The notes: a model not told the origin generated them from the letters alone. DNA of 64,000 bases from Bilabrum cf. latius (GCA_965178125.1 OZ237775.1:372001-436000), one strand, 5' to 3'; positions 1 to 64,000 are shown, numbered from the stretch's first letter. Numbers and translations are program-made.

Positions 1-3000
1 ACCCACCAATGAATGCTAAGGATTGACCGAATCCTTCGAATGCCCCGGCCCCAGTCGCACGAGCTGCCAGCGCTGCTTCTCTTCCCAGGCCCCTGCTTGC
101 AACCCACCCCGGCACACCACGAAGACCTGCGTGATTCACTGCTGGTGCAATGGCATTGACATGCAGTACGCGCGCCTAGATATTGCCAGACTCTCCAAAG
201 GTGGGTAGCACATCTGCTAGCACGACCCGGCCCTACCCCTCGAATGCACCGGGGGCACCAATGGCGAGAATGATCCGGCCATCTGCTCCTGCTGGCCGTT
301 CACCAGACAGTGAAGCCCTCGGAAGCACAGACAAGCTTGCACCAAACATGTAACTCTCGCTGGCGCACCCCAGCACTCCAGACATGATCTAGAATCCACT
401 GCAATCAGTTGCTTCTAGCCGAGCCACAGACACAACTGGCTACTGCGAGTCTAGCGAGCTTCCAACGCCGTCGAACTTGGACCGAGGAGAACTATCGACT
501 GAAAACGAGAGCCTCAAAGCCATAATCTCGACAACTCCTTTCTGCGAATCTTCCTTTGGAAGCCCAGTCGCTATCAAGTGCACCCCGCTTCTTGCCAGTG
601 GAGCAACTGCGCCGCCCGCGGCAGCGCTATAAATCGGATATGTCCTACCAAGGGAAGCCACCGAGGCGCCAAGCGACACATCGGTGGTCTTGATACTTAA
701 AGCGTTGTCAATTTCCGATGAGACAATGGAAGATGCCACCACCTGCACCTGGGGTGCCTTTAAGCCCTAGCCTGCACCCTCTTGGGTGTTAGTGATGAAA
801 ACAATCGCAATGGCACCCTAGCCGCCGGTTGCATCGACAGCTCCCTGCTTGAACAATGGTACACCCATGGCGACTGCTGTGACTGGCGCTAGCACGACAT
901 GCTTTTTGGTCGTGCCGCAGCTCTCGGACGGCATGGCAGGGAAGCCAGCGAGTGTCACCTCTGGCAAGGATCTAAACCTTGCGACATCCAATGCTCCTTC
1001 TTGGTTAAAGTACATGCTAGAGTTTTGATCGTCCGCCAGACAAGCCCCAAGGTACAGGCCACCGCCAAGGATATCGAGGGATGTCACAGATGCCCCATCG
1101 GTAGATTCCCATTCAGGGTTTGTGAGCTCTGTACGGTGGGATGCCGCAGCGTTGATGGCTGGTGCCAGGGACACGCCAGCAACAGGCTGTGCGCTGGAAA
1201 TCGTGCCACTAGAGCTGCGTAGGCCGTGCACGAACGGTGACGATAGCAGCAATGGCTTTCCATTTGACTCGGCAGCTGACATGATCGTTGATGCTCCTGA
1301 TTGCGTACTTGATGCGGGTCGCAGTCCAGAAGAGTTGGCATTGCTGCCAAGCGCGCCCTGCAGGCCCTAATCAGTGAGTGACGGGTGACTGCCGACACCG
1401 TATGACACACACCCTGAGCATACTGCCGTGACATGCCCAACCACCGCTGTCCTTCCGAAGAGAGAGGACCGCACCATTGACTGGCTGGAAGTATAACCGG
1501 AGGAGCCAGTCGGCTAGCCTGATGTAGATGCACCCACGTCACACACTGGACTATCGGCGGGAATGGCAAGTCCACGCAGCAAGCTAGCAGCCTATTGCGC
1601 AGTCATGTCCGCCCACCCGGCGCTGCATCCATCCAGTACAATCGAGTACGTCACCTCAACATCGGTTGAGCTGCTGCTGCCAACTGGCACGGACGGAGCA
1701 CCTGGCGAGCCCAGGCACGTCACCCATGCCAGTGACTCAGGCCCTCCTCGAGGCATGCCCGATTGGAATCGCCCCATCGCGCCCACCTAGCACGGCGTCC
1801 CTCCGATCCTAATGCTCTCAAGCACAGCCCTCGCCCTCCTGGTGCCGATCGCCCCATCCGTTTGCACAGCACCACGACCGATAGAATCCGTCTCGTTCTA
1901 AACCAGCACGGGCGGCCAAATTCGCTGCATCGACTGCGACGCAAGCTCAGCACCTTGAACTTGACGTGACCCTTGGCCGTGGATGGCAGCCAGCAGCGGA
2001 ATGGTCGGTCCTGTCGGCGTGCCTTCTTGCATCGGGTGCAGTGGCACTCCCGCAGGAACATCGACCACAACATCGAGATTGCCTGCCTCCACTCCTGGTG
2101 GAAGTCGAAGGGCGAACACCGCCCCTGACACCCGGGACGACCACTCCAGCATGCTGGCGTCCGTGTCAACTCGTATACCACCCGGCTGAGCGCCACCCAG
2201 CAACTGCTCCACCTGCCTTGCACTCGCCAGCGCGCCCTCTGTCACGTTAGGAATGCCTGCACCTCCTGGGTGCAGCACGACATTTGTATCACCCAAGCCA
2301 TTGATTGAGGAGTGTGAATCGCCAGACTAGAATGGTCGAGTCAGCGTCGGCATCACGTCCTCCTCATACGGGACTCCTGCCGCAAGAGCAGACAGGGACC
2401 TCAGCCGGTGCATGAGCTTGGCTAGCACTGCTGGGGAGAGTGGAGGCTCCCCTTCGTGCAGTGCATTTAATTGCTGCATTGCCTTGCTATCGTCATATTC
2501 TGAGGATGCCTGCACTGCATTGACACGCTGAAGCTTGGCTTGCAGGAGCAGAGAGGCCGCGTATCCAGTAGCATCATCAATTCCGATAGACATGGGGGCC
2601 ACATCGGCTGGATGTAGAAGCGATGACAAGCAATTGCTACTAAGGTATCGCCCTGCTGCAGCCAGTGGGGTCGAGTTGTCTTCGAGCACTGCCAACACCT
2701 CTGTCGGCGTGCAAGCATCTGACACTCCGCGGCGACGTGCAGGTCCGAATTCGTCGCGATGCAATGCATCCCATACTGTATCGTTCGCCTGCATTGCCAT
2801 CTGAAGCCTCAGCGGCGAGTATGCAGCCTCACTGCTGCTGGGCAGAGCAGACCCGCTGTAGTGGTCGGGGTGGCAGTGCGAGCTGAACTGCCGCAGGTTC
2901 TCCGCAGATGCCACAGAGCAAGAGGAAATCATTCCTTTACCTGCAAGAGCGATCGTGCCTGCATCCCTGCCGCCTCCAAGCCAGAAGAATCCGCGCCGTG

Positions 3001-5956
3001 GCGATGCTCCAGTGGTTGCGGCTAGGGAGCCTGAAGAGCCGCCACTGATGGTCCAAGGCAGTGCAACTGCCGCCGCTGCCGAGCTGCCTCGTTGGTTGGA
3101 GCTATCCGACTCATTGCGGAGGAACGAAAGTGCACCGCCCGACACATTGAGCACTGGATTTACCAGCACTTCAGAATAGCGCCTCACCGCAGTGCTGCAG
3201 GCCATGGGCCCGCCGATCGATCGGGAATGCCCGGGAGACTGACCGCCAGCTGCTAGGGGCAGGTGGCGACTCATCCAAGCACCCAATTCTCCGCTCCGAC
3301 ACCTGGAACCAGCATGAGAAGTTCCCTTTGAAGCCGCGTCTTCCGTGTGCTTCAGTGGGATGATCAGGTCGAGAGACCCGGTGCCTGGCACGCCTTGTGA
3401 CTCCCAGGCGGATCGCAGCAGAGGCAGCGCCATCCTGCCGTCTGTCGTGCCCCCTTCAGGGTCATCCTGCTGTGCACCTGTAGATACGTTCAGGTCTACT
3501 TCACCGATTCTGTACGTGCTCCAGGCCATGCCTTCATCGGGTACCGCCATGCGAGGACTCAGCACATCCTCGGTCAATATGGAGGCGCGAGCGAGATCTG
3601 ACGCTGCCCCTGAGCGGGCTTCAACAGCTGGGCCAAGCTCAGCAAGCGGCGAAACTTCGGCGATCCACTTGATTGCAGCCCGACGAAGACCACCCAGGCC
3701 GATGCTGCCGACTGAAGCAATCGGCTTCACGTGCTTTGCCGCGTCATTCAGGTCCTTGTGGATAGGACGCAAGCAAATTGCGTTGAAGGACGTCGGGAGC
3801 CCGCCCAGCGCTCTCTTCTGCTGCCAGCGGATTCCAGATATCTAGCTGCCAGTTTTCAATGCATCCTGCATGACCCATGATCGAGCAGCACCGAACGCGT
3901 TGGATGGACGCGTTTCATCACTCTCCCTCGACCACAGGTCTAGGCCTACTGGGTGCGAGCCAGGCTGCAGGGAGCCATCACCCAATCGCATGAACGGCGC
4001 TGCGTCGCTCTCAGAGGTAATACCGAGCAGAGAAAGACCCGTTGTTGAGATTTCCTCGATCTGGACGGCCCCTTGGATGGTCCGGGGGGCAGCCAGCTCA
4101 CCCTCGAGGGGGTCCGCACGAGTTCCAAGGCAATCTGCAGCAGCGGCATCTCGACTCTCAGCGGAAGAATACTCCATCACAACAGCACACTTCCCGACAT
4201 CTTCGGCCCAGACGTGGGTGTTGTTCGTGGGCGTGCTGCTCTTTGATGGCGCCACGTTGCAGTGGAGCGGTGGCTGGTCTGGTAGGTCGTGCTGTGTGCC
4301 CTGCACTGCGAGCAGCACCCTGCCGTCCAGCAGGCCTGTGGGATCATCGACGTTCTACGCGAAACTGTCCGATGTGTTTTGGGATAGTGACTCGACTCCT
4401 AGTTTGAAGACGTTGTGACCAAAACCCTTGACCACGCGGTCTCCCCACCTGGATGCCTGGGGGACGCGCTGCTGGCTGCTGGTGTCCCCTCCATCGAGCT
4501 CGGAGGCTGCAGGGGCAACGACAAAAGGAGACAAGATGTAGCCGTCCTTTCGGACCGGTGGCGCACGAATGATCTCCGCTGCTGCCACTGCAAAGGCCCC
4601 ACCTGCCGATTCTCCGCCATTGGCAGGACGCAAAGAGCGCGGAACAGCCACGATCGAGGCGATGACGACTGCGCCTGCCCCGTAATCGAGCCCGGGGGCA
4701 CCGATCGCGACAACCATATGATTCATGCACGCGATGCCTGCCCCGAGATGGAACAAATCCCCGCACTTGCCCTCCCACCGACCAGACCCCCTCGCCAGGG
4801 GGCCCGTCTCGAGCACCGCCACGGACGTTCCAAGCGCAGCACCGTCCTGGCCCAGCTCGGCAGGGAACCCCCCTCTCCCGCCCACGGATAGCCTGGCAGA
4901 TGCAACCACATGCTAGCCCCGAAATGAGTCGCTGCATCCGAACTCGGTACTTGCACTTGGTTCCGTGGAAAACTGGGCTCGGGCAGCCTGCGACACATCG
5001 CTGCAAGGCGAATCGTCCGAGCCGTCATGGAAAGCAAGAATGGCAACAGCACCGGTGGCAACTCCACTGTAAGAAATTGAACCAACGAATCCTTCTGGGC
5101 CAAGGTCTGGGATCGATTCTGCTTTCGCTCCAGGCATGCCGACAGCCATTGCTCGCAATTTGGGTGTAAAGTCCTCTGCTGGACCAGTGCTAGAAAGACC
5201 ACGTGGCTGCAGCTTTTCAGCGAATCCAGGGCTCAAAACACCTGCGTATGCTATCGAAGCCCCGAACTAGTCGCCATCGGTGCACATTTGGTCCGGAATA
5301 CCACTATAGCCGGGCTGGAGCACCGCGGAAGGTCTGACGCCAACGCCTGCTTGACTGCCGCCTAGAGGAGCCAACTCAAGAAGCAGTACGGCACCTGGTC
5401 GAGACATGTGGGATTGGGAGCCTGGCAAAGTTATAGTCTATTGCGGTACTGGGGCCCTTGGCATACCGATAGACAAGATTTGCCCTGGCGCTCCACTGGT
5501 AGACGTCAGACCACCAAGGAACCGAGTGAGCCTCTCTCCCTCCTCCACAGTCAGCAGATTGGTAGAACTAGAATTGCAACCGCGACGAATCGGAACATTT
5601 CCAGCCCAAGCTAGGCTAGTTGCCACGGAAAGTGCTGGCTAGTCAGTCCGAATAGTAGCATGTTCGCAGACAGCTGCAAGCTGAGCTGGGAGCTGCGTGG
5701 CAGTGATTGGCGCAGGGAAAACGTTTGTATCCCTGCATGAAGCCTGTAGGATTCCGTAGAACGCTTGAGCCGCCTTCAGATTTTGTTCTCGTGGATGAAG
5801 CAAACGAACACTGAGCAAATTGCTGGCACTTGCCAACACGAACACACTCGAAATAGTCCACAGTTGTACGTTGATCATCATTCGTTGTTGCACTTTAAAA
5901 TTGCCTGGTCGATCTAACTTCTCAGGTTGCGGCTGGGGCGATTTCGTCAACTTCAT
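1..5956 (-). CDS. Very large, probably secreted FG-GAP/integrin-alpha-like repeat protein (>1950 aa; 3' end runs off the window); read with TAG=Gln
   Basis: ORF fragments 5639..5956, 5438.., 4913.., 4355.., 3842.., 2327.., 1898.., 1592.., 818.. and 440.. share one frame and each ends in TAG. No in-frame TAA/TGA between 440 and position 2. Signal-peptide-like MMINVQLWTISSVFVLASA near 5880. FG-GAP-like motifs VAIGAPG, MAVGMPG, FGASLSVL, ILAIGAPG. Confidence 0.6.
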
Positions 5957-6314
5957 GCTCTCAGGGTCCTAGGCGGGAATATGATATATTTTCCAAAAGT
6001 ATACGCTATCGGAATATGCATCAGCCCTGCAGGCCTTGCTTTGAATAGTTAATGACATGAGCGTAGATGTGCGCACCTGAGCTTTTCATGGTAGTAATAC
6101 CAGCGAGTTTACCCGTTGTCATTGCCAGTGGTCGCATGGGGGCCTTGGTCGCTGCCAGTGGTCGCGTCCGGATCAACAGTTGCGACCAACAATCGTAGGT
6201 CTAAACAAAGCTATCTTGCAAAAGGCTGAACTTTTGAGAAGAAGACTAGATCAAAACCACTCTGATATCAACACCGAGCCGCATCGAGCAACCGGATAGA
6301 TGCTCGAGTTAGTC

Positions 6315-8353
6315 TTAGTCATCGTCATCATCCTCGTCGTCCTCCACGATGACTGCATTCTCCACGATGTCGCGGAGAGCCGCAAGCTCCTTGGCCGCCT
6401 TGGCAGCCGCCTCCTCCTTGGACAGGCCCTCATCCCTCATAATCTTCGAGGCCGTGCGGATCATTGCCTTGCTGGCCGACCTCTGCACCACCAGGCGCTG
6501 CACGTGAGCGGCGAGCTCAGGCTGCAGCACCTTAAGCAGCTCAATCCCGCGCCACTGCATCTGCCCGTCTTCTATTAGGCGGGCCAGCGCCGAGCGGACG
6601 ATTCCCACGCCGCCAGCCGCCTTCACGCGGGCCAGGCACTCCTCTGCAAAATAAATTAAATAAATACAGATAAGCAACTTCTGTCGCAATCGAGGCGGAG
6701 GCGGCGGCTTTGGAGTGCTCGTGTGACAGGAATCGATATGACGCAGGGCTGCGGCCTGGAAAAGCCCCGTACAAATGGTGGCGCATCCGATGATAACGCG
6801 TTGAATCTCACCATTTTTGCACAGAGATAGCAGCAGCTGAGTGCCCCTAGTTTGCACCTGATAGTCTCCGTCGCAACGCGTCATGCCCAGGCAGACGGCC
6901 TCGCAGGCGCCTTCCTCTGCCAGCTTGTCGGGGTATGCGGAGCTCAGGGCAGTGAGCGCGGTCAGCCTGGGGTGGTAGGAATAGAAATAGGAAGACGAGA
7001 CGAGGAGTAGATAGGTCATACACGATGCGGCTGCACGTGGTGACGGCTAGCTACACGCTGTGCGATGCAGACTGGCATGCTATAGCAAACGAAGGAACAG
7101 GCTGAGGCAAACCGGGCGGAGGCTGTACATGCCAGCCAGTCGGACACACTCGTCACACAGTCTCACCCCCGCGCCTGGATTTCGGGCACCCACGAGTGCC
7201 TCTGCATCGCGAACACGGTTTTGCCGATGCCTCCGGCGTCCTGAGCGGGAAAGAAAGAAAGAAGAGCTCAGAGCGAAAGACGAATAAGACGTACGTGGAA
7301 GCTCGCGAACAAAGCTGGCCAAGCGGTGAACCGCGATGCAATGCATTGCACTGCACTCACCACGAACTCTTTGCAGGCGTCCTCGTCCCCTGTCAGCATT
7401 GTTGAGAACGCGTCCAGGGTCCACAGAAGAACCTCCTGGCTTCTAGCACGCTCCAGCATGAAGGTAATGAGCGCCTTGGGTCCGGATTTCATCACCTCGG
7501 CCACCTGGGCCGAGACGCCGTGCTTCCCCGGAATGTTCCCGAGGGCGATTTCCTTGGCCTTTCCGGCCTTGACCGCCCCACGCAGCATGCCCCATGTCTT
7601 CTTCTTTGCAACCAGCGTGGCCGCAGCGGCCTGGTCCGCTCCGCTGAGGCCCCGAATCGCCTCTAGCACTTGCCCGGCCCTGAAGGCGAGCATTGCGTCC
7701 TGAGCGTGCTGCTCGACGATCCCAGTGAGGACTTCGGCTGCCTCCGCCGCGAATGCTCGCAGAAGGTTATCTCGTGTTCCTTTCGGGGCATCGCCGTCGG
7801 TGGATCCGAATGTTCCGGTCAGGCGCTCGAGGCACTTGACGCCGTCCGTCGCAGCCTGGTGGTCGTCGGGGTTAGAGCGAATCCCGCGCACAACCTGCTC
7901 CACGATGCCAGCCGCTCCCAGCTCCGTGGCAAACGCCCCAGAAAGCTTTGCAATCAGGCGGAAAGCGCGAGACTGGACGGTGCTGTTCCATTGGTACAGC
8001 CTCAGCGCGCTTTCCAACGTCTTGACTGCATCAGCTTTCATGGCAGCCTCCTCTTCCGCGTCATTGTCGCCAACAGTCTACTCTAATGCTTCCAGTCCAG
8101 CGATGACTGCTTCCTGGCTTCCCATTTTGGACTCGATGCACGCAACAAGCGCAGCGCCACCCGCTTTCGATGCGGTCTCGACTGCCAGCAAATTCTCGTC
8201 TGGGCCGTCTCCAGCTGCACCGCCACCGGGGCCGGACATAGCCACAGGCTTTTCAACTGCTGATGCTCCTGCTACAGAGGCCTGCGAACGCAATTATATG
8301 ACGCAAAGAGGCCTACTAACCTCACATATCGGGTGCTTATCAAGACGCTCCAT
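6315..8353 (-). CDS. ARM/HEAT-like helical repeat protein with acidic tail, paralogue A (multi-exon)
   Basis: Exon peptides match the 14462..16700 gene (GNIPGKHGVSAQVAEVMKSGP; DYQVQTRGTQLL; QMQWRGIELLK). GT-AG introns near 8282-8320, ~7240-7367 and others. One in-frame TAG at 8078. Ends TAA at 6315. Start codon uncertain. Confidence 0.65.
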
Positions 8354-13953: not shown

Positions 13954-14461
13954 CGGGTACGTACAAGCCAGCACTCCTGCCAAGCCGAGTGCATGTGCAC
14001 CACGCCCATTTATACCATTCTGCACATGGACACGCAAGCAAATGGAGATGCTCACATTCAATCAACAGAGGTACCAAAGCCTTGTTGGGTGGGTGGCTTT
14101 ATGCACAGTGGGCTCACATCGTTCTTTTCAGGCTTCAACATGAGTTTAGCTACCACCCGAGTCATGGAATACGATCCATAAATAACTGCCCTGCACATCG
14201 TGGTGCTGCGATGGTAGGGGGATGAGCTACTTGCGTATACGTTTGGTACAAGATCCATCCACATCTCTACTACAAGCTGACGAATTTTCGGTACCATATC
14301 TCTGACCCATCTGTCTGCATATTTGTAAACTAATAAACTCCTAAAGAATCCGACTTATTCGTGAAAACGACTTGTTCGAGATGCAAGAACGAGGAAATAG
14401 ATCGGCGCCGCGCATTCACCAGCCATGGGCCGGTTCCGCTAAAGACGGTCAAGCTAGCTGG

Positions 14462-20332: not shown

Positions 20333-21008
20333 GGGGGGGGACAACGGGTGGTGGTAGGTACACCAAGCGTTGAGGACGAGGGCTACGCTACGCTCGCCCC
20401 TCCTTTAAAGGCATATTTAGCAACTCAAGTGTTTTCCCTATAAACCTAGATGATTTCCCAAGGGGTTCCCCAAGAACCCCTATAGAACCCCTCTATGTAC
20501 CCATTTTCAGATATAAAATTTACTCCTACGAAGTAGGGGTAAATTGAAGAATTCTAATCTTTATCCCCCTTATAAACTCTAACAGCAAAGACAGAGATGT
20601 TTTAGTAAAGTAGGAAAAAATGAAGAAATTAACCAAGTGTCAAAAACCTCTCTGTGTTTGCTGTAGGAACGAAAGGATGAATTCCCAAGAGACCAAGAGA
20701 CCAACCGAGGATTTTCCCAAGAGAACAAGGTATTTTATCAAGAGAACAAGGTAGTTACACCAAGCGACAAACCGATGAACCGACCGATGAACCGACCAAG
20801 GATTTCCCAAGGATTTCCCAAGGATTTCCCAAGGATTTCCCAAGGATTTCCCAAGCGACTAAATTGTTCTCCGAAGCAACCAAACCGATTACCCAAGAGA
20901 TGATACATTATAAGGAAAACGAAAACAAATTATAATTGTATTTTAAGTCCCTTTGGAAAAGTCCCCCAAAAATTGAGAGATTTGACAGGTCAATTATAAG
21001 AGACTTAG
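20333..21008 (+). repeat. Left terminal inverted repeat (676 bp)
   Basis: Reverse complement of 23295..23969; position p pairs with 44303-p. The ORF track shows the same 67-aa ORF on opposite strands (20640..20843 and 23460..23663). Confidence 0.95.
20796..20855 (+). repeat. 11-bp tandem repeat (CCAAGGATTTC)x5 within the TIR (mirror copy 23448-23507)
   Basis: Directly visible. Related TTCCCAAG motifs are dispersed through the TIR and occur once internally near 22905. Confidence 0.9.
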
Positions 21009-21295: not shown

Positions 21296-21469
21296 TTTTT
21301 TAATTGTGTCTGTGTATCGTTGGGGAAAATGTATCAATTTTTCTTGGGGACTTTTTAATACCGATTTGTTTTCCACAAATTCCTAAATGGATTTTGTAGA
21401 AATACTTCTACACTTAAATAGTGGTTAAGAGAATTCATCTCCCCCAATATATATGTATATAATAAATCT

Positions 21470-22024: not shown

Positions 22025-22066
22025 ACGGGCATACATTAAATATTATTATATCACTTTATAGAAATA

Positions 22067-22378: not shown

Positions 22379-22438
22379 TAAAGATGATATTAAGTCCCCA
22401 TAAAATTCTGATGCTTCTTGCTGTTAAAATGGTGTCAT

Positions 22439-50771: not shown

Positions 50772-51123
50772 GCTATTTTATGTCTACTTCACTGTGCGTT
50801 TAGTGTACGTGTTATAATTCTATAGCCTTGGTATAGCGGCATATCCTTCATCTACAAAATCGGGAATGATTTAGACACAGCAACTGGGACAGGGGCTCCA
50901 GCACTGCTGTGGCCCTGCAACCGGCGCAAATTAGAGGCCAACGTGCGCCGCTTGATAACAAATACTAATATTTTGCCTTTTCCATGCTCTAGTTGAGACC
51001 GAATGGTTCTATTTCATCCTCATTTCATATTTCTGCGGGGATCCAGGTGGACTCCGATCCAATCTGATGTGAGGCAAATTAATTACGCCCGTGAATGCAA
51101 CATAATCTGCCAACAATTCACAA

Positions 51124-53582: not shown

Positions 53583-56500
53583 TTACCGATACGAAGTGTA
53601 TGTACCCAGGGTCTCAGGTTGATTTGAGTCTACCTCTCCTGGCTGGGCTACCCTTGGCTGGTTCGTTTTACCAAGGGGAGCGTAAGGCTCGAAATCTCTG
53701 CGATTGCGACTACCAGTTGCACCCCGGTTCTTCATAGCCATCGGATTGAATACGCGAAGCATGGCAGGCATTCCAATGCTAGCCCGCCAGCTTGCAAGTT
53801 CTTTCACGTGAGCCAGATCATCGGTGCGAACTCGGATTGGGAGCAAGTCAGTGCCCAATTCTGCAGGCGGCTCGAACAGAACCCCCCCGACTCCCAGCAA
53901 GTCGCGCTCATGCTAGGCATCAGCATGGATATCGTGCTGAATTTGCTGCGTAGAAATAGGCTGGGCTAGAGCTTGAGTAGATCTATGTTGGTCGTCGGCA
54001 GAACCAGCACCGCCTACTGCTTCACGTCGTATGCCGCCAGACTTAGGCTGTTGGTATTGGCGCACCGTCGGAATGGACCTGCTGCCTGTCTCCAAGTCCT
54101 CAAAGGTCACTGTGGACCCCTCTAACAGCCCAACCCTGCTTGCAATCACTGCCTCCGGCTGGCCTAGGCATTTAGGGATCGGCAGCTCGTTCGGCTGCAT
54201 CCCAAGCTGCCTGGCAATGTCAGCCATCGTGCCACCTCGAATTGGAACTCGGATCTTCCTAGACTTCGAAAGGGATGCACTTGTAGCTTGTGTATCAGAC
54301 GGGCTCGAATCGGGCTGCAGCACCTGCACATGCATCTCCATCACGCCTGCAGCGGCTCGCGCCAAGATTCGATGCAATGGTAGGTGACCACTCACAATCG
54401 CCGAAATTAGCGCGTCCTACAGCTTCGGGTCATCCTCGTTCCCGCCTGGCATAATGCACAGTTGCACGCGGATTGGAGGCAGCTCGTGCTTCCTGTACTT
54501 GCACTCGGCGAAGAAATCACCCACGGCACTGGTGATGATCCTTGCCCCCTCAGTGATGCCCAGCCCGTGCATGCCCGACCAGATGGGGATACGGAGCACC
54601 ATCGGTACCTAGTGGTCACGTGGTGTTATATCCGCAGGTCTTCTCAGCGGCACAGGCTCCTCCTCGCTGGACGGGTCTTCCTCTGTGTCTACCACAATTG
54701 AGCGCAATCTACCGGTTGACAAGAACCGATCGAGGTCAGAATACGGATTCGTACCATCATCACCTCGTCTAGTAAGTGAGCTGGACTGCCTTGACTCCTC
54801 AGATCTTCCATGTGTTCCTGCAGCACATGCTGTTTGGCAAGCGGTTTGGCTTTGACCACTCGCTTGTTGTGCTCCGTCGATCGATGCAGCGGCGCCCCCC
54901 CCCGGAAAACGTATATCGCGGTGCAGTCCGTCTAGCTCAGTCATGGGCTCTGCATGTACCCGCTTACTGTGTTCTTGCTATCGCCGCCGCGGCGACTTTT
55001 TGCCAACTGAGTGAAGCAACCGCGCACCGCACGGATCGGCGTCATACCACCTTGCTGTTCCATCGTTGATGGTATCATATCTACGTTGAGCTGCGCAGGC
55101 CTGAGCCATTGCAGCGCTCTCATCTTCATTGACCTCATCGTCGATGCGATAACCTCTTGCCCTGCACTCGTCAAGTACAGCCTTAACCAGGAAATGCCTT
55201 GTTCCCTCGAACAGTCCGATCTTTCGACTAGCTAAGCATGCCATGTTCTATCGGGCCTCGTGTATCTCGCTGTCTGTAGTTCGAGCGTCGCTAAGGTATG
55301 TCCCTCTCAGGCCATCTTGCATTTCGTACACTTCTTCGTTATTCTGCACCGCGGGGCGCAACGTCTCGACGCAGTATATCGCACACGTTCCCGAATCTCG
55401 TTCGGGTGCGACTGGCTGCCCACTTCGCTCTCGTGCCGTGCTTGCACCACTTGCAGGCGCCTGCTAGTGGTGCTCATTGCATGGGTTACTCAAGACTTTG
55501 CGAAGGCAATGGGCCCTGCGGAACGACCGGGGAGCTTCACCGCGGAGATCTCCAATGCTGGCGCCTAATCCATTCTTCTCAAGCTTTGTTACATACATGT
55601 CATTCTCTCGCTTGATCAGCGTGTCTTGCCACTCCTCAGGGAATCCTTCGATTGTGATTGGCAAGCAACCGGCTTCATGAGTACGCAAACGCTTGATGAC
55701 CCAGCCTTCAAGACAAAGAAACGGATGGCTGTCAATGAGGTCTTCCTGTTCGTCTGGTTGCGAACTATTGCGGCGTGCGAGGCCAGGAATTGAAGCAGTT
55801 GTAACCTGACTTGTGGTTTGGCCGGTACGCAAATCGGTACCTCTCGCCTAAGGCGCTGATGGCTGGCGCACCCTCGACACTACGCTTGGCATCACGGCAA
55901 CTGCTACGCTAGCACCTCCTTGATAACCCTGTGTGAGTTCTTTCCAGCTCATCTTGCAGCAGAGCAGCTCTGCCCTCCCGGCCCCTCCATCCGATGCACC
56001 GGCAGTGCTGCCACAGACTGTGTCTGCAACACCAGGCCCGGTAGCTGCATCAGGTACTTGACAATTCCCGTGCGAGGGACAGTCGACATTGAGTGCGCCA
56101 AAGTCGTGCTGGGAAGCATCGGCGGGGACGCTCCAGCCCTACGATGCTAGTCTACGCACGAAATCTGTCATCTTGTCGTATGCGTCTGGCCAATTGAACA
56201 CGATGGTGTGGGTTCCACGGTGCGAGAGATGCTCCTTGCACTTGGTCTTGAACTCCAAGAGATCTTGTTCGTACTTCTTCACCATTTCTATGCGCTTCGA
56301 ATCCGAAAGCTTGAGATACTCCGTCTTGTCAAACTGTGGCGCTACTGTAAGGAAAAAGTGGGGACCCACGTCGCCCACCACCTCGATCGCTTGATCTAGG
56401 CCAGCTAACACGTCTCTATCCTCCAGCCCAAATCCATAGAACATCAGGCTGTAGTCGGAGGCGATCATTCGAAGCATCTGCATTGTCATCGTGTCTGCAT

Positions 56501-59500
56501 GCACCAGTCTCCTGAAATCCTCATGGCTCGACACAAACTCGCCCATGCCACCAGGGCTAATATCGCCGTGCAGCTTAACGAGAGCAGGCACGTCGGATTG
56601 TGATTGCAAGTGGGCTCGCAGTCGCTTGATATCCTTGCGGAAGATTTTAAGAAGGGAAAACTGCCTTTGTACCATGTACTCACCTTTATGTCTGACGGGG
56701 AGGTGGTTCATCCGCTTTAAGGCCTGATAAGCATCTCTCGGCCGCTGCACATGATCGTTTTGGGATTCTCCTCCGGGTGCTCCGTGTTGTCTTGCTGCAT
56801 GCAAAGCAGCCATTACCTTCCAAGTCTCCTCAAAAAGAAGGTCCCAGTTGGTCGTAACGATGGCCGGGAAGGGGCCGGAAAGGAGGGCTGCGTGACGATC
56901 GAGGCTTCCTTTGATGGCAAGCTTCTGGATAACATCTACATCAACATCTACATCTACAGCCGCACCTGCGCCTATGCGAGCATTAGTGCCAGCAGTACCA
57001 GCTGCACCTGCGCCAGAACCAGCGCCAGAACCAGAACCAGCGCCAGAACCAGAACCAGCGCCAGAACCAGCGCCAGAACCAGCACCTGTGCCAGCATTAG
57101 CGCCAGCACTAGTACCAGCACCAGCGCCAGCGCCAGCACTTTCAGGAAAAAGCGTACCCCTCTTGCCATCCTCAATGACACCTTTCACGCATTTTTTAAA
57201 CTCTTTGGCGCCGAACTTCCCAATGAGTTGCAATGTAAATGCATCCAGCTTCACGCCAGAACGATTGATACTGTCATTGAAGCGCTCATATCCGGCTTCC
57301 GTTGGAACATCGTCGTGGACATCAGGAGGGTTCAATGCGTTCCTCAACCTGAGATACACGCAATAGAGCAAAGTTTTCCAAGTGGGAACAAGGCCGTTGC
57401 TCACCCCTGCCCCGGCAAAGGGAATCACCTTCCGGCACCGCGTTCGCTCCAGCAGCAGCCTCACCGACCCCTTGGGGTACTCCATGAACACTAGATTCTT
57501 GTCGTCTTCCAGCGGTGGATTGAGAAGATCCTTGAGAGGAGCTGCAGCTGGTGCAGGGTCTGGGGTTAGACCTGGACCTGGGGCTTGAGCTTGAGCTGGA
57601 GCTGGAGCTGGAGCTTGAGCTGGAGCTGGAGCTGGAGCTGGAGCTGGAGCTGGAGCTGGAGCTGGAGCTGGAGCTGGAGCTGGAGCTGGAGCTGGAGCTG
57701 GAGCTGGAGCTGGAGCTGGAGCTGGAGCTGGAGCTGGAGCTGGAGCTGGAGCTGGAGCTGGAGCTGGAGCTGGAGCTGGAGCTGGAGCTGGAGCTGGAGC
57801 TGGAGCTGGAGCTGGAGCTGGAGCTGGAGCTGGAGCTGGAGCTGGAGCTGGAGCTGGAGCTGGAGGAGCTGGAGGAGCTGGAGCTGGAGGAGCTGGAGCT
57901 GGAGCTGGAGCTGGAGCTGGAGCTGGAGCTGGAGCTGGAGCTGGAGTTGGAGCTGGAGCTGGACCAAGGCCACTGGGAGCTGCATCGCCTGATCCTGCAC
58001 TAGCAAGGCGCCACCAGTGAAGGTCAATTCGACCGGGAGCTGCGAGCGGAACGAGAGCCCCGCGAGATTCCAGCTACGGGCTGGATGCGGTGCTGCCTAC
58101 CTAATCACGATCGATGCCCATCGTAACGAGTTTCTCTCTTGCACAGGCTACCATTTCGTCTGCTTGGTCAGACTAAGCATCTTGCAATCTGGCCACACAC
58201 CACGCCAAATCTCCGACGTAATCTGCTCGTGGTCTGCAACTTGACATGCATGCCCGTACCAAAGGCTCTGAGATCGAAGGGAGGCCTATCTCGCTTGGCC
58301 AAGACCAAGCAAGTCTCCTGTCTATCCAATCGCCCCAACTCTGTATGCAAGGCTCACCCACACGTGATTCACGAGCTGATCTTGACGAGGCACCCTCGCC
58401 ACCGTCTGCAGCAGTCCTTGATACTTCTGCTACTTCTCGCAGCTCAGGTGGCTCAACTGGCTGCCTGGTGAGAATCGTGAACATGATGCAGCCGAGGGCA
58501 TACACATCGCTAGCTTCCGTACGGCGTGCCTTGGGCTCGTTTAAAAACCTCTCTGGTGGCGCGTGCGGCTCAAACCACACATCCGGCGGAGGATCGCTGA
58601 ACCGTCGAGACAGGCCCAAATCAACGAGGGTGGCCCAAAATCGTGTAGACCGTGCTGGATCTGCCCTACTGCTACTAGCAAGTGGGGCGTGATGCACTCC
58701 GAATCGAGACTAGTGCGTCATCCGATGCCGCAGCATAGCCTCCTCGTCGGCATTGGCCTCCCTGAGTACGATGTTGCCGCAGTGGATGTCGCCGTGTGCC
58801 AGTCCTAGCGCGTGCATGGCAGAAACAGCGTCGGCTATCTGGGCACAGATGCAGAAACGCTGCCCCATGCTCAGATCAACTCCGATACCGTCATAAGGGG
58901 CCGGCCACTAGGCCATCGATGTTCTGCCTGCCTCGTGCAGCAGTAATCTCCGGGTGGAGCTGGCGTCGGACAGTGGCGGTGAAGTCATAGCTGCAGCTGA
59001 TGACTTGGGCATGGCCTTCGTGTTAGACTCAACTATTGCTGCACTTTGTACCACATGACCCAAGCCGCTGTAATAGGAAGCTCCCCAAAGCGTTGCTGTG
59101 TGGCACTGAGAACCTCTCGCAGCTAACCGTGCGGCTTCCGTGAGCATGCTGGCTGCAATAAGCTCATACGAAACTCGATCAGAACTCCTAGATTTTTTGG
59201 CAGGGGTATAGCCCGAGCCCTTGCCTTCCCGACCAGCAGAAATGCTGGTGAGTTTAGCATCGCGTTCGCTTTCGATGGATTTCATTTTGATCGTTTTCAG
59301 CAGAAACGCCGAGTGCTCTGTTCCTCGCAGGATAGATTGCGACAGCACTCTAGCCCATTGCTGTACTCGTATCTCCCGCAGCTCCCCAAAATTCCCCTGG
59401 CCCGAAATCGTATTTGTTCGGATCACTGCAGCTTCGGGTATGATTGGAAGCACGCGTACGACGAGCGAATCATCTTTATTTCCGGCAGCCGCAGAAGTTG

Positions 59501-62161
59501 GCCCTGCATTTGCCGTATCACGAGCTGGCACATCCCGTGGCGAAAGCAACATGACGTTGGTTTTCAACGATGGTGGGGCCATGCATATCGGCAGGCGGCC
59601 GGCCGCGACTGATGACTCTGCACGCGCGCACAAAGAAGCACCAGCTTCACAAAGCTACCGAGCACACGCTGATGGCTGGCTATCGACAGCACCGGATGGC
59701 GCAGGCATGTACACAGAGGCATCACCAGTGCCGAAGCCAAGAGAGAGACCATTCCCTAGCCAGTTGATCCACGCCGACTCGTCTAGTTGCTGGCACAGAG
59801 CAGGCCAGGCACTGCGCGAAAGCAAATCTCCACTTCCCCACGTCTCCATGTTCAGCAGCAGCATTGCCCGGGCCCTGGGTTGAACAAGTGGCACGATCGG
59901 GGGCAGGAAGCACGCCGTGTGCTCCGAAAGGGTGGACAGGTCGAGGTGCTGCCTCGCCGCGGCACACGCGTCCTCCCACTCGCGCACCTTGCGCCAAGCC
60001 TGTGCGCGGGCATCATCAGCAGCAGGCGTGATGGGCAATCCCAGCAGGCTCTAGCGCCAGGACACGTCCTTGCGAGACCTGAACATGTCACACAAGCTGC
60101 TGGTACCAGCATTCGATCCGGCCATAGTTTCACAATACCGCTGCTTTGCGAAATCTTCATCATAACACGTGACCTTGGTCTGACGGATGCACCTTATTTG
60201 CAGCTGAGGATCTCGAGACAGCCTCTTCTCCTCATCTTCGTGCATGCACACGAGCACGGTGGGGTCCGTCTCCGACGCTGATATCCGCAGGGCAAAGCAT
60301 ACTGACAGTTTCTCTGTGCTCATTATGTGCTGCTTCTCACTAGTTGCGTTCGCCTCCCGCAGGCGCATGTATGCCTCATCACCTCGACTGCGGCTAGACA
60401 CGAGAGACTCACCGAAAGCGCCTGGTAGGGGACAGGGCAGCTGCGATGCCCACATCAACTAGGATATACGGCCGCTTGAATCGGAATACTACAGGCAACT
60501 GATGACGCCCGCAATCCGTTCTTTGTCTGACTGCAGCAGCATCATTGGGGATACCTCGTCATCTGGTACTCCATGTTGAACCCCCTACCCGCCACCCGCA
60601 GAACTCCCGGCGTGTTCACCGGTCGTCGCGAGCGTCAAACCTCCTTCTACGAGGTCTGTTCCGAGGCCAGCGGCACCTGCATGTGATGCATCCGTGCCTG
60701 CATGCGATGCACCTCCATGAGACCCGTTAAGTCTCAGGGACATTTGCCCATACTCATTCACGTGCACGTCCAACCGGTAGTGATGTACGGTGAGGTGCTG
60801 CTGGCGCCCGACTGCAGAGGAGCCACCGCTCGGTCCAGAACTAGGCGCGGGAGCGTGATCCATGTCAGTGCTCCATGTGAATAGAGCTCTTTCTTTAACG
60901 ATATGGCCCTGCAGCGCCGCAAACGTGACACCGTCTCTACTCGGCTGCAATACTGATGGCGCAGTGTACCCGGCAGCATGCTCGGCAGCTGCTGCGTCCA
61001 AGCCTGGCGTGTCCAAAAAGCCAGCCCCCCGCCCTGCACCGGGTACACCTGCAGTCTTGGCGCCAGAGTCTGTTGCGCCTACTTTTGCAGCTTCATCTCC
61101 AGCACCATCTACTTGGCCCCCGGCTGTGTCTCTGGTTCGACTGCCAGCTAGGCCAGAGCTGAGCTCGGGTGCCTGAAGCTCCCTCAGGTGCTTATGTACA
61201 GCGGGACACACGATCTGAAACGGTGTGATGAAAGATCTTCCGATGTCATCATCACCTGCCGTTCCAACCGCATAGAGGGCCGGAGATTCTTCGGGATGCT
61301 GGGCTGCAGAAGATCCTGTCATTGCACCACCTTGCGCTGCACCCTGGCTTGAAGAAGCACCGTGAGCCGTGGGCGCCGAGATGCGCAGATGTGACGTGGT
61401 CTGGCCCCGAATCATGCCGCTGCTGCCATCTAGCCCAAGCCCTATGACGAGTGCAGCGGCAGCCAGAGCACAGGGGTACTCCCCGCTGACCGTCTTCATG
61501 CCATTGCCCCCGCCCCGCCCCGCCGACAGGATCAAACCCTCTCCGTACTCGCTCGGATTCAACCGCACCAGCCAAGGGTCCTGTCTCTCGATCGACGACA
61601 GCAGCAGGTCGGCGGCCGGGCGAGACATCATCCCCTGCATGCCGGGCAAGGCAGCGTCCAGGGCCAGCAGCCGGTGGGATGCCGCGAGGATCACACGATC
61701 AGGTGTTCTAGCTTGATTGCCATCCGGCATGATGCCAGCTCGCAGGATGTGGAGAAGGCCGGCAAAATCCAGGAAAGGCACCAGAAGGCTCTTGTCTTCT
61801 TTCTCTTGGAGCCTGGGAGGCGTGTCGAGCTGCCCGAGAGCTGCGCGCCAGGCTTCAATGCATCGATTAACTGCATTACCACCAATCTGATCGACCGAGT
61901 ATTTCTTGCTGTTATCGCTTCCGGATGTGAGAGTCTCGCGGATGCGGCGTTCGATCGTTTGCCAAGGCAGCGCCGGGAGCAAGTCTTTGGTTTCCTGCCT
62001 GCACCAACAAGAGTAGGGCAAAAGTAGAATCGCCTACAAATGTAATACAAGATGCATGCCAATGTGACAGCGGTCAGCTCTATCGGCATGCAATGACATG
62101 ACATGCCACACGTACGATCTTACCGTAGGAATGATGCCCAAACCGCTGTAGAAGCTATCAT
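53583..62161 (-). CDS. ~2800-aa multidomain protein: N-terminal region, Ser/Thr protein kinase, (Ala-Pro)n linker, SIR2-like (SIR2_2) domain, possible Macro-like C-terminal region; read with TAG=Gln
   Basis: Twelve same-frame fragments joined by TAG; ends TAA at 53583. Predicted exon 1 at 62124-62161, intron 61999-62123. Kinase motifs GQGNFG, LLKTIK, HGDIHCGNIVL, DLGLSR, HAPPE, SDVYALG. SIR2 motifs IPFAGAGVS..PTWKTLL, IVTTNWDLLFE, LVKLHGDI, LMFYGFGLEDRDV. Confidence 0.8.
57583..57963. repeat. Hexanucleotide microsatellite (GCTGGA)n, ~60 units, encoding an (Ala-Pro)n linker on the minus strand
   Basis: Directly visible. In the frame of the kinase-SIR2 gene it reads GCT CCA repeats with no stop. 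Confidence 0.95.
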
Positions 62162-62628
62162 TACCACTGACTCAGAGAACACTTCAATTGTATGCGTGTA
62201 ATGCCAACGTCGCCAGTAGTTTCTGGCAGAAGTGTACTGAACCGAATTTGGTGTGGGCTGTGGCAATCTTGATTAGTTGAATATACACGGCTCAATCAAA
62301 ATTTGGACTCCCCAAGCGCTTCCCACCCCGAATCCAAGAAGCAGGCGCAGGAAGGAGCCGGTGCCCAGGCACTCACATAGGACAGCTGTCAGTGATGTTC
62401 ACAGTAGACCCAAAAACCAAGCGGGCGCTCGTGATACGAGCCGAAAAGAGGCCGCCGCGACAGGGCGCCCCACGCCCCGATCCTCGACAGGGCGACAGCA
62501 ACCATAGTAGCCCCTGCCTCCATCCTGGACACACGTTCACAGGGCACGTGGCCAGCCGTCTCAAAGAGCACCAGCAGGGCCTCGACAATGCAGAAGCCGA
62601 CTGTCGCCCTCGGCCACACAGCTGGCCC

Positions 62629-64000
62629 TCAGTCCCGTCCGTATTGATCCTCTGGGGCTGCGGAATACACCATGTCGTGCGCACGTTGACCGATCAAACT
62701 GCGCCACTTCTCCAGCAGAGACTACAATCGCTGTGCATCTGTTTCTGGAGCAGCGCCCTATGAACTTGCAGCTGACGACTGCCGGCCAAGTGGTGCTCCC
62801 GGTTTGCCTCCGTCCGAGTCGCTGGACTCCTGGGGTGCCTTCCGAGGCGTGTCACCGTCGTCATTGGATTTGCCACCACCTAGTCCCTTGCCCGATTCTG
62901 CCCCTGACCCCTCGCTCGTAGTTGCAACAGTTTCTGCCTTACCAGCCGATGATTCTTTGCCGCCTTCAGCACCGGTGCTAGCTGTTCTGAAGCGCACCGG
63001 AAGCAAGTCAGTGCCGTACTCCGCTGGAGGCTGGAACAAGATGCCACCGCCTTTCCAGGCTTCCCTGCCCTGCAATCCCTCGCTTTCCTCTTCCACCTTT
63101 CTGAGTCCCTCCAGATCGATGAAAGAGACCGCAGAGCCTTCCAAAATCCCAACACGGCTGGCAATCACGTCAGCTGGCTTATCCATGAAACTAGGAAGGG
63201 GCAATTCACACGGAAGGAGACCCAGCTGCTGAGCCACGTCGGCCAAAGTGCCGCCTCTGATGGGGATGCACATCCTCCTCGACTTGACCACACGTGCCAT
63301 GTGATGAGTGCCAGAGCGCACTGCAGGGTTGGTCCGTCTGCTGCTGCCAGGGTTGGCGGCGCTGGGTTGCCGACCCGTCTCCTGTATTGGAGGGGGCATG
63401 CTTTTGGATTCTGCTCCAATCGACCCTGCGGCAGCACCCGAACCCGCTGCGGTTGCCTTCGCAGGATCATTTGGTTCTCTGGCTGCTGTAGCATCACCAA
63501 TCCGAGAGTCAGTGGCGTCTCCAGGAAAGCCCCCACTCGTTTGTGCGAGATGACCTGCGTCAAGCACCTGCACATGCACTTCCATCATGCCATCGACGGC
63601 TCTGGCCAGTACAGACTATAAACAAAGCTGCCCACCAGCGATTGCAGTCGTTAGGGCATCCTGGAGTTGAACACATGTACCGTCCAATTGCCTGTCCTCG
63701 CATGGCATGATGCACAGCTGCACACGAATCGGAGGCAGCTCGTGCTTCCTGTACTTGCACTCGGCGAAGAAATCACCCACAGCACTGGTGATGATCCTTG
63801 CCCCCTCAGTGATACCCAGCCCGTGCATGCCCGACCAGATGGGGATGCGGAGAACAATTTCCCGGTCGCCACTGCAAGTGGCTTGCAGAGAGTGAATGCG
63901 GCCAAGTTCACCTTCCTGTGTCTCGCAAGCGTTGCTGCTCGTGACTGTTGAAGACTCAGAAGCGATCGCCGCAGGTTCGCTCGGCTCGCTTGGTGTAAAC
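62629..64000 (-). CDS. 3' part of a tandem paralogue of the 53583..62161 gene (5' part outside the window)
   Basis: Shares GMHGLGITEGARIITSAVGDFFAECKYRKHELPPIRVQLCIMP, IPIRGGTLADVAQQLG, VIASRVGILEGS and GGILFQPPAE.GTDLLP. TAG-joined fragments; ends TGA at 62629. Confidence 0.75.

Follow-up and report, generated by a model that had tools for sequence, protein, structure and literature searches.

The window, by which we mean the whole 64,000-nucleotide stretch of DNA analyzed here, has a GC content of 59% and carries genes on both strands. It opens within a frame of 2,028 codons (2..6085, minus strand), which runs off the window start and contains 19 in-frame TAG triplets and no TAA or TGA. This frame belongs to no Pfam family, and a protein search matched it to a single 87-residue fragment that covers none of the TAG sites. 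Next on the minus strand is a frame with three in-frame TAGs (6315..7766), which ends with the TAA at 6315 and has a paralogue at about 14465-15611. An ankyrin-repeat protein of 1,223 codons (8819..12490, minus strand; eight in-frame TAGs) ends with the TGA at 8819, and a frame with 75-nt tandem repeats (12499..14061, minus strand; five in-frame TAGs) ends with the TAA at 12499. The gene for the TFIIH subunit p44/Ssl1 (17589..19727, plus strand) has TAGs at 17709 and 18588 and ends with the TGA at 19725. Its 5' exon probably lies further upstream, as no in-frame ATG precedes the conserved N-terminal motif.

An AT-rich element of 3,637 bp (20333..23969; GC 0.35) has been inserted downstream of p44. 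Inverted repeats of 680 bp form its termini, and a 5-bp target sequence (GGGCC) is duplicated at the insertion. The ORFs of the element (21008-22723) match no Pfam family above the cutoff, DUF5754 coming nearest with 26.0 of the 27.4 bits required; their PHROG matches are weak only, and no phage match was obtained. Matches of the same ORFs to PDB entries proved to be spurious sums over WD40 repeats. One ORF of 184 residues has a His, an Asp and a Cys at a spacing that may resemble the one in adenain/Ulp-type cysteine proteases; TAGs lie a short way upstream of this Cys.

Two pairs of paralogues follow. A secreted-type protein (copy B, 27841..29523, minus strand; four in-frame TAGs, ending with TGA) could be compared codon by codon with its copy A at 23970-25410. 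A small ankyrin-like protein (copy B, 30006..31013, plus strand; two in-frame TAGs, ending with TGA) has its copy A at 25895-26903. A frame of 2,775 codons (31662..39989, plus strand; ten in-frame TAGs) ends with TAA. The C-terminal 1,100 codons of this frame have an orthologue, likewise ending with TAA, on a metagenome contig of a close relative, L001. The preliminary description labelled this frame TAF2, a name that has no support: the frame shows no Pfam family and, for residues 200-1300, no PDB sequence match at E ≤0.01.

The main exon of a DNAI1/IC78-type outer-arm dynein intermediate chain (40726..42876, plus strand; 1e-147 against Chlamydomonas IC78) contains a TAG at 40786 and ends with the TGA at 42874. 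It is preceded by an 88-nt GT..AG intron (40638..40725, plus strand). A leucine-rich repeat (LRR) giant of 2,522 codons (43203..50771, plus strand) combines LRR_8, BspA-type LRR_5 and Ephrin_rec_like domains, has 17 in-frame TAGs and ends with TGA. It is followed by gamma-glutamyltranspeptidase, GGT (51106..53319, plus strand; Pfam 1e-113), with TAGs at 51373, 51964 and 52699 and a terminal TGA. The largest frame, a protein kinase + SIR2_2 giant of 2,862 codons (53583..62171, minus strand; 19 in-frame TAGs), ends with TAA; a protein search with it returned seven low-complexity matches through a Pro-Ala repeat. A long repeat is present at 57617-57865. A paralogue of the C-terminal part of this giant (62629..63999, minus strand; three in-frame TAGs) ends with TGA and is open at the window end. 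Homology thus upholds the identities proposed earlier for p44, DNAI1 and GGT, and adds those of the LRR giant, the ankyrin protein and the SIR2_2 + kinase giant.

Reading frames and in-frame stop triplets

The preliminary description proposed that UAG encodes glutamine with UAA and UGA kept as stops, and that several giant ORFs are interrupted in frame by TAG alone. The interruption of the giant ORFs holds: 14 frames with 16,220 codons contain 97 TAG, 0 TAA and 0 TGA. The proposed code is borne out by these frames, by the gene ends and by the codons facing TAG in L001 (see below). The out-of-frame counts per frame, taken over the same 14 frames, are 110.5 for TAG, 56 for TAA and 303.5 for TGA. 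The absence of TAA and TGA is partly a matter of construction, because these two triplets were used to set the frame boundaries. The real test of their absence is the length of the frames and not the zero count. Out of frame, a TAA or TGA occurs about once in 45 codons, yet there are frames of 2,028 to 2,862 codons without either.

Under the standard code, the window holds six frames of at least 500 residues, the longest of 695. With TAG as sense, there are 13 such frames, the longest of 2,862; with TAA as sense, there are eight and the longest remains at 695; with TGA as sense, there are 23, the longest of 1,076. The genes validated by homology (p44/Ssl1, DNAI1 and GGT) contain no in-frame stop triplet other than TAG. 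UAG accounts for about 14% of the Gln-type codons of the window.

The inserted element follows the same pattern, its inner frames being open only with TAG as sense. The summed length of its frames of at least 80 codons is then 774, a value attained in 0 of 300 shuffles, whereas the value obtained with TAA as sense was attained in 44 of 300. UAG is a sense codon in this DNA, and TAA and TGA are its stops, as can be read directly from the window.

Gene ends

The 13 gene ends listed in the preliminary description are all correct. Three of them are TAA (6315, 39987 and 53583) and the others are TGA (8819, 14462, 19725, 26904, 27841, 31011, 42874, 50769, 53317 and 62629). Two more were located, a TAA at 12499 and a TGA at 15252, so that the 15 ends comprise 11 TGA, four TAA and no TAG. 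Many genes terminating at TAG would have refuted the proposed code; none of the 15 does so. The orthologues on L001 end with the same TGA or TAA as the window genes, and none of the three gene ends seen on that contig is TAG.

These numbers bear on the possibility that the code is ambiguous or context-dependent, with UAG read mostly as glutamine and also terminating some genes. Stop codons with such a double meaning, set by context, are found in Condylostoma and in karyorelict ciliates. The tally leaves room for this possibility in that it is a small sample (15 ends in the window and three on L001) and circular in its definition of frames: a gene truly ending at TAG would appear too long, its frame being cut at the following TAA or TGA, and in some frames the tail after the last TAG is indeed short (30 to 109 codons). 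Fifteen gene ends are too few to rule out that UAG terminates a gene now and then. Had a quarter of the genes used TAG, an assumed rather than measured share for a GC-rich genome, the chance of finding none among 15 ends would be ~0.013. Where the tails can be checked, conserved sequence continues beyond the last TAG, namely in the 2,775-codon gene (compared with its L001 orthologue) and in the 2,862-codon gene together with its neighboring paralogue. The termini of DNAI1, GGT and p44 coincide with those of their homologues. Furthermore, TAG is not visibly avoided within genes, since it is as frequent in frame as out of frame (97 and 110.5). An ambiguous code is improbable, and we prefer the reading of UAG as a sense codon.

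Exchange of TAG and CAG

L001 is syntenic with window positions 36654-42877 and has a GC content of 0.596. Its DNAI1 is about 90% identical to that of the window in protein and 77% in DNA. The genes of L001 carry in-frame TAGs of their own and end with TGA or TAA. The comparison of the two sequences yields eight rows with a TAG, and all four of those in well-aligned flanks pair TAG with CAG, two in each direction: the window TAGs at 40786 and 39690 face CAG in L001, and the window CAGs at 41038 and 37293 face TAG. The two DNAI1 genes have the same residue at 645 of 715 aligned codons, 337 of them by a different codon. Gln-type pairs among these codons are CAG/CAG (17), CAG/CAA (3) and TAG/CAG (2); among the 58 Glu rows there is no TAG opposite GAG or GAA. 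When the other window proteins (the big ORF, LRR, GGT and p44) were compared with 80 loci, a match was obtained in L001 only. An ORF downstream on L001 has no counterpart that we could find in the window.

The paralogues and repeats within the window give a CAG partner in six of 15 rows. Global alignments were used for the paralogue tally; blastn alone yields three rows, with short HSPs. The TAG/CAG pairs reported earlier are all as described: 25153/29269 and 28651/24540, 26343/30450 and 26409/30516 (the TAGs at 26343 and 26409 of the ankyrin-like copy A facing CAGs of copy B), and 32979/33000 in a local repeat. TAG 54417 of the kinase + SIR2_2 giant faces CAG 63661 of its neighboring paralogue, and TAG 63616 of that paralogue faces CAT (His) in the giant. 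Two TAG/TGG pairs between paralogues, 28276/24164 and 30120/26006, were omitted from the preliminary description. In all, 23 within-lineage rows contain a TAG (L001, paralogues and repeats combined). CAG is the partner in ten, GAG or GAA in none, and AAG or AAA in none. The other 13 rows, which mostly lie in poorly aligned flanks, have TGG, CAT and GGG twice each, TAG, GGC, GCT, GCA, CGA and GCG once each, and one gap. Protein fragments of the same family (P0132, P0169, P0134 and P0150) have Gln at three TAG sites of the 2,862-codon frame; such fragments also give Arg, Leu and Ser at TAG sites.

TAG and CAG replace each other as synonymous codons do, and the use of TAG as sense is common to the two sister species. 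Glutamine as the meaning of UAG is a well-supported inference whose basis is the partner codons in the relative and in the paralogues.

Distant homologues and the identity of the residue

Distant homologues give a less uniform picture, and on them draws the alternative that UAG is a sense codon for some other residue, mainly glutamate, with lysine or tryptophan less likely. UAG encodes glutamate in peritrich ciliates and in Blastocrithidia. The preliminary description warned that TAG 40786 of DNAI1 and TAG 18588 of p44 stand where homologues often have Glu, and the warning was justified. At 40786, 120 homologues have E in 89 cases, D in 21, a gap in six, P, T, S or L in one each, and Q in none, so that E or D occupies 110 of the 114 non-gap positions. 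TAG 18588 of p44 faces E in human p44; opposite TAG 17709, the human and yeast proteins alike have K. At TAG 45258 of the LRR giant, E is the commonest residue (four of seven aligned repeats); as a test of the residue, however, the internal repeats of this protein do not discriminate, with R, Q, H, N and E lying within 3.5 log units. In GGT, three solved homologues have Q, S and Q opposite TAG 51373, the sole site tested against distant homologues that faces Q. Tryptophan has the two TAG/TGG paralogue pairs in its favor.

The closer comparisons speak against this alternative. None of the 23 within-lineage rows places TAG opposite a Glu or Lys codon, whereas ten place it opposite CAG. Both TAGs of the DNAI1 orthologues, which have 90% identical residues and heavy synonymous change, face CAG, and the 58 Glu rows are without a TAG. 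L001 has CAG exactly at the acidic DNAI1 column; as a close relative carries CAG at this site, the lineage has Gln there. Tryptophan is further opposed by the lack of aromatic residues in any of the homologue columns. A residue other than glutamine is thus very improbable, and glutamine remains the preferred assignment.

Transcript-like contigs

The 88-nt intron of DNAI1 is skipped in contigs assembled from runs X5 and X7 and retained in X1. The X5 and X7 contigs have no letter differing from the window over 40726-42896, 51117-53434 (an X5 contig that spans GGT), 53428-54504 and 54561-57042, and their depth shifts gene by gene. TAG 40786 is unchanged in the spliced contigs, 60 nt inside the exon, and 11 further TAGs are unchanged in X5 contigs. 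The same letters are found in four runs from four studies. X5 is typed as "probably DNA" and X7 as "RNA?", and no run is recorded as RNA; the two are read as transcripts because they carry a spliced joint and their depth follows the genes. Several bins are without read cover in X6 and X7, from which no inference was drawn. To the extent that these two features establish the RNA nature of the runs, it can be inferred that UAG is present, unedited, in mature mRNA. As the transcript-like contigs show no differing letters, the TAGs that they cover are neither edited sites nor assembly errors. An absence of the TAGs from reads or transcripts, which would have counted against the code first proposed, is not observed; they are kept in the four runs, the spliced contigs included.

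The notion that the code is unchanged, the TAGs being pseudogene lesions, assembly errors, edited sites or unrecognized introns, can draw on one real intron near a TAG (40638-40725) and on one paralogue copy broken by an insertion, but it is hardly credible when lesions would also bring TAA, TGA and frameshifts and only TAG is found over 16,220 codons, when the four runs have identical letters and the spliced contigs keep the TAG 60 nt into the DNAI1 exon, and when a second species has the same pattern at different sites.

The organism and its decoding apparatus

Among named organisms, Cafeteria roenbergensis gives the best match to the window DNAI1 (56% identity), and many stramenopiles come next. 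A quick tree of DNAI1 alone places the window sequence and P0001, the DNAI1 of the relative in the protein library, as sister to the Cafeteria group (SH-aLRT 99). A relative on the Cafeteria side, L002, has no in-frame stop across 614 aligned DNAI1 residues. The position of DNAI1 beside Cafeteria identifies the organism as a stramenopile, although this placement rests on one gene; an Rfam search gave no match in the window, which contains no rRNA. The "GC-rich flagellate" of the preliminary description was right and can now be narrowed, by the DNAI1 match and tree, to a stramenopile nearest to Cafeteria roenbergensis. Halocafeteria seosinensis was rejected as the source, since its genome is reported to have 47% GC, compared with 59% for the window. 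We are largely confident that the window derives from the nuclear genome of a heterotrophic flagellate among the stramenopiles, with Cafeteria as its nearest named relative, in which UAG stands for glutamine while UAA and UGA still terminate.

UAG is presumably decoded by a tRNA-Gln with the anticodon CUA, a molecule that is inferred and has not been seen: ARAGORN found no tRNA gene in the window or in L001. The release factor eRF1, which is not encoded in the window and is likewise unseen, may have lost or weakened its recognition of UAG, as has been proposed for Iotanema spirale (PMC5304391).

Comparison with known codes

To our knowledge, UAA and UAG almost always change their meaning together. 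The few changes confined to UAG that one survey lists are those of a rhizarian, Iotanema, Scotinosphaera and a few ciliates (PMC11687900). The closest of these is Iotanema spirale (Fornicata), described as using UAG for Gln and UAA and UGA as stops (PMC5304391; PMC11687900); its eRF1 carries T32G in the GTS motif, and UAA is its primary stop (PMC5304391). Its codon table is that of the window organism, with only UAG reassigned, to Gln, and UAA kept as a terminator, and both are flagellates, free-living or endobiotic, outside the ciliates. The main stop differs, being UAA in Iotanema and TGA in the window (11 of 15 ends). Iotanema belongs to Metamonada and the window organism to Stramenopila, and an origin independent of Iotanema would follow from this difference of supergroup.

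Among ciliates, the survey names Protocruzia tuzeti and two phyllopharyngean lineages as having UAG alone reassigned to Gln with UAA kept as a stop (PMC11687900), in which they resemble the window organism. Ciliates are known to change their code more readily than any other group, and the phyllopharyngeans examined have a GC content of 27-54% (PMC11687900), whereas the window is from a stramenopile with 59% GC, ordinary-looking nuclear genes and few introns. Other cases are the rhizarian exLh (Leu), Scotinosphaera (Ser) and the ciliate PL0344, with UAG as Glu and UAA as Lys (PMC11687900). These share with the window organism the uncoupling of UAG from UAA and differ in the residue; in the window lineage it is CAG that exchanges with TAG, and not a codon for Leu, Ser or Glu. 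Codes with both UAA and UAG as Gln are attributed to ciliates (table 6), hexamitin diplomonads, Ulvophyceae, Streblomastix and Amoeboaphelidium (PMC11687900). They resemble the window code in the new meaning, presumably acquired through mutated tRNA-Gln anticodons, and differ in that UAA is reassigned too; in the window TAA is absent in frame, ends four of 15 genes and, taken as sense, brings no gain in frame length.

Implications

The window presents a known rare code in a new lineage. No stramenopile with a reassignment of UAG alone was found in the literature searched, a negative that is consistent with the "further independent case" suggested in the preliminary description. Whether this is the first known nuclear stop-codon reassignment in stramenopiles, with the rare change of UAG alone to Gln having arisen independently in an intron-poor, bicosoecid-like lineage of 59% GC with at least two species (those of the window and of L001), we regard as evenly balanced.

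Gene callers applying the standard code would cut the proteins of this organism at every TAG; the DNAI1 of the relative in the protein library (P0001) begins 232 residues late. Unless TAG is translated as Q, such cutting will fragment the proteomes of the lineage and the phylogenomic matrices and metagenome bins that include it.

If the inserted element follows the code of its host, the mobile or virus-like elements of the host are adapted to its code or confined by it, which hints that the change of code shapes which mobile elements and viruses can inhabit the host. If the change is independent, it would provide another natural experiment on how eRF1 gives up UAG while keeping UAA, set in a further supergroup and a GC-rich genome whose main stop is TGA, and would bear on whether GC pressure or a mutation of tRNA-Gln opens the way to a change in the meaning of UAG.

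Reading frames and gene ends

UAG very probably encodes Gln in this organism, with UAA and UGA serving as stops. This reading, put forward in the preliminary description, is supported by the reading frames, the gene ends and the exchange of TAG with CAG in a related species.

Except for a single AT-rich island at 20-24 kb, the window has a GC content of 59%. Under the standard code the whole window contains six frames of at least 500 aa, the longest being 695 aa. When TAG is taken as sense, there are 13 such frames, and the longest four reach 2,862, 2,775, 2,522 and 2,028 aa. Taking TAA as sense barely alters the frames (eight of at least 500 aa, maximum 695 aa), and taking TGA as sense opens many (maximum 1,076 aa), as is expected of GC-rich DNA. 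Fourteen frames, comprising 16,220 codons, contain 97 TAG codons and no TAA or TGA; the two out-of-frame readings of the same DNA contain, per frame, 110.5 TAG, 56 TAA and 303.5 TGA. Since these two triplets served to delimit the frames, the absence of TAA and TGA is partly built in. Frame length is not: out of frame, about one codon in 45 is TAA or TGA, whereas four frames are longer than 2,000 codons. With 437 CAG and 180 CAA codons in the 14 frames, TAG would represent ~14% of the Gln codons.

The 13 gene ends of the preliminary description are all TGA or TAA on re-reading, and every TAG and CAG coordinate in it is correct. Together with two ends added here, TGA terminates 11 and TAA four of 15 genes. 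As only 15 + 3 gene ends have been seen, it cannot be excluded that the code is ambiguous and that UAG terminates some genes too. This is nevertheless improbable: conservation extends beyond the last TAG wherever this can be checked, and TAG, being about as frequent in frame as out of frame, is not avoided.

Predicted genes

Judged from their sequences, the long frames are real genes. They include TFIIH p44/Ssl1 (17589-19727), the outer-arm dynein intermediate chain DNAI1 (40642-42876; top solved match Chlamydomonas IC78, 1e-147), gamma-glutamyltranspeptidase (GGT, 51106-53319), an LRR protein of 2,522 aa, an ankyrin protein and a protein of 2,862 aa that combines kinase and SIR2_2 domains. 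The label TAF2, formerly attached to the large gene at 31662-39989, finds no sequence support in Pfam or PDB.

Near its 5' end DNAI1 is split by an 88-nt GT..AG intron. A first exon possibly begins with the ATG at 40479, which is in frame; this putative exon would contain TAG 40488. The p44 gene probably has a 5' intron as well, because a conserved N-terminal motif (frame residues 25-45) precedes any in-frame ATG, the first of which is not found before residue 93. Introns thus seem to be few, short and 5'-biased. The 2,862-codon gene contains a long Pro-Ala dipeptide repeat (57538-57963), and the frame at 12499-14061 contains 75-nt tandem repeats at 12736-13372 that are 89-96% identical. A tandem segmental duplication of ~4.1 kb (19155-20332 and 23970-26912 vs 26922-31019, 73-91% identical) holds two paralogous gene pairs and a copy of the C-terminal part of p44 (26887-27495), which has 87% protein identity to p44 residues 538-712.

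Taxonomic position and a sister species

In a library search with DNAI1 the top named match is Cafeteria roenbergensis (56% identity), followed by ochrophytes, oomycetes and other stramenopiles (46-54%). A quick single-gene tree places the window and P0001, a library protein, as sister to the Cafeteria group (SH-aLRT 99), with a long path of ~1.4 changes per site. On the evidence of this one gene, the organism is therefore a stramenopile of the bicosoecid side, not a close relative of Cafeteria, and its earlier designation as a flagellate can be sharpened accordingly. Identity with Halocafeteria is unlikely, as the available part of the source gives a genome GC content of 47%, compared with 59% here. 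No rRNA or other RNA families were found in the window.

P0001 is encoded on L001, an 8-kb metagenome contig (GC 0.596) that is syntenic with window 36654-42877. L001 has three in-frame TAGs in the final 1,073 codons of the large gene and one in DNAI1, and the TAA and TGA that terminate these frames match those of the window in position. L002, a contig of the same collection that belongs to the Cafeteria side, has no in-frame stops across 614 aligned DNAI1 residues. The code change is therefore common to at least two species and, as far as these contigs indicate, may not extend to the Cafeteria side. Downstream of DNAI1, L001 carries a membrane-protein-like frame (6645-8021, minus strand; 459 codons, five in-frame TAGs, ending in TAA), for which no counterpart was found in the window; synteny thus ends there.

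The residue encoded by UAG

The possibility that UAG encodes another residue, above all Glu, is favored by the columns of distant homologues. A caution to this effect in the preliminary description is upheld, since Gln is missing from distant homologues at several sites. Among 120 homologues of DNAI1, the column of TAG 40786 contains E in 89, D in 21, a gap in six, P, T, S and L once each, and Q in none. In p44, TAG 18588 lies opposite E of the human protein, and 17709 lies opposite K of both human and yeast. GGT 51373, for which three solved chains have Q, S and Q, is the sole such site facing Q. Had only distant homologues been considered, Glu would have been a reasonable choice. In a representative library, kinase-SIR2 family fragments have Q at three TAG sites (P0132, P0169, P0134, P0150) and R, L or S at others.

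Codon exchanges within the lineage contradict Glu and make it very unlikely. DNAI1 of the window and L001 has the same residue at 645 of 715 aligned codons, 337 of them through a different codon, so that synonymous sites are heavily changed. TAG 40786, at a column that is acidic elsewhere, lies opposite CAG in L001, and L001 TAG 4221 lies opposite window CAG 41038. In the large gene, window TAG 39690 faces an L001 CAG, and L001 TAG 574 faces window CAG 37293. TAG is thus paired with CAG in all four rows with well-aligned flanks; the other four L001 rows (GGG, GGC, GCT, GCA) come from low-complexity sequence that aligns poorly. The Gln-type pairs of DNAI1 are CAG/CAG (17), CAG/CAA (3) and TAG/CAG (2), and none of its 58 Glu rows involves TAG.

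Ten rows come from the tandem duplication (23970-26912 vs 28082-31019), with CAG in four, TGG in two, TAG in one, and CAT, CGA and GGG once each, the last three with badly aligned flanks. The TAG/CAG pairs among paralogues reported previously hold, although the two TAG/TGG pairs had been omitted. The partner in the 6315/14465 paralogue pair is GCG; those between 53586-62171 and 62632-63999 are CAG, CAT and one gap; and in a local repeat TAG 32979 faces CAG 33000. Over all 23 rows that compare a TAG with L001 orthologues or with window paralogues and repeats, the partner is CAG in ten and a codon for Glu or Lys in none. TAG therefore acts like a codon synonymous with CAG, from which a single transition separates it, and the sister species, by comparison of codons, settles the residue as Gln.

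An AT-rich inserted element

An insertion of 3,637 bp (20333-23969, GC 0.35) disrupts one copy (copy A) of a duplicated gene. Its terminal inverted repeats measure 680 bp (20329-21008 vs 23295-23974, 99.85% identical), and the target duplication is GGGCC, 5 bp long. The interior enclosed by these repeats (GC 0.31) contains no frame as long as 80 codons, whether read with the standard code or with TGA as sense. Taking TAG as sense yields six such frames, the longest of 221 and the shortest of 82 codons, and their sum of 774 is attained in none of 300 first-order shuffles; the result with TAA as sense is within chance (44 of 300 shuffles). Small ORFs of 123, 184, 103 and 94 aa contain one to five in-frame TAGs apiece, and none of the element's ORFs has a family match above cutoff (DUF5754, 26.0 bits vs 27.4). 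GC-rich composition therefore cannot account for the pattern, and the element, to judge by its frames, uses the host code. Integrated virophages and polinton-like viruses likewise combine low GC with long inverted ends and a duplication of 5-6 bp, as known in part from the available portion of a Halocafeteria preprint; the element is far smaller.

Transcript-like contigs

The stretch is present in eight public runs from four studies, and contigs from four runs were mapped onto 40000-57600. Run X1 has an even depth of ~22 and spans the mapped stretch, with no joint at the DNAI1 intron. In runs X5 and X7 depth varies by gene (in X5, ~1 ahead of DNAI1, 109-142 over it and 2-7 across the LRR gene), and each has a contig omitting 40638-40725 (88 nt, GT..AG ends). 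The contigs of X5 and X7 are inferred to be transcripts; no run is recorded as RNA, and X5 is labelled 'probably DNA'. TAG 40786 is intact in the spliced contigs, and X5 contigs across 51117-53434, 53428-54504 and 54561-57042, which include all three GGT TAGs and eight in the 2,862-codon gene, have no differing letters. These unchanged TAGs, together with the frame counts and the sister species, exclude lesions, pseudogene decay, sequencing errors and editing as their source.

The X5 DNAI1 contig stops 20 nt past the TGA (window 42874-42896), and that of X7 at 42862, still inside the coding sequence. Very short 3' UTRs are hinted at by these positions, but where an RNA truly ends cannot be read from contigs. 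Another highly expressed gene, with short matches to both places, is the probable source of X5 (depth 266) and X7 (depth 46) contigs that reach 41235 and 52524, the two being separated by 38 other letters.

Possible mechanism and relation to known codes

By analogy with published cases, the likeliest mechanism is a change of the tRNA-Gln anticodon from CUG to CUA, which would allow the tRNA to read UAG and not UAA, as shown for Tetrahymena tRNA-Gln(CUA) (cited in the accessible part of PMC5304391). Likewise, eRF1 would lose affinity for a third-position G and keep UAA and UGA; in Iotanema, the proposed eRF1 change is T32G within the GTS motif (same part of PMC5304391).

According to the portions of these sources available, the identical code occurs in Iotanema spirale (PMC5304391, PMC11687900), Protocruzia tuzeti and two phyllopharyngean ciliate lineages (PMC11687900). 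UAG encodes a different residue in a rhizarian (Leu), Scotinosphaera (Ser) and PL0344 (Glu), and the common UAR = Gln codes differ in scope (available part of PMC11687900). No report of nuclear stop-codon reassignment in a stramenopile was found in the full-text literature, which leaves out most subscription journals; in the accessible part of a 2024 stramenopile overview 'genetic code' occurs only among the references. The depositors may already be aware of the code, as the runs date from 2025. It is a rare code, well supported, in a new supergroup, and probably of independent origin.

The public gene call for the DNAI1 of L001, P0001 (L001 4596-6086), begins at an internal Met that lies 232 residues into a frame of 729 codons and 125 residues beyond the in-frame TAG at L001 4221. 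It illustrates how gene calling with the standard code truncates proteins in this lineage.
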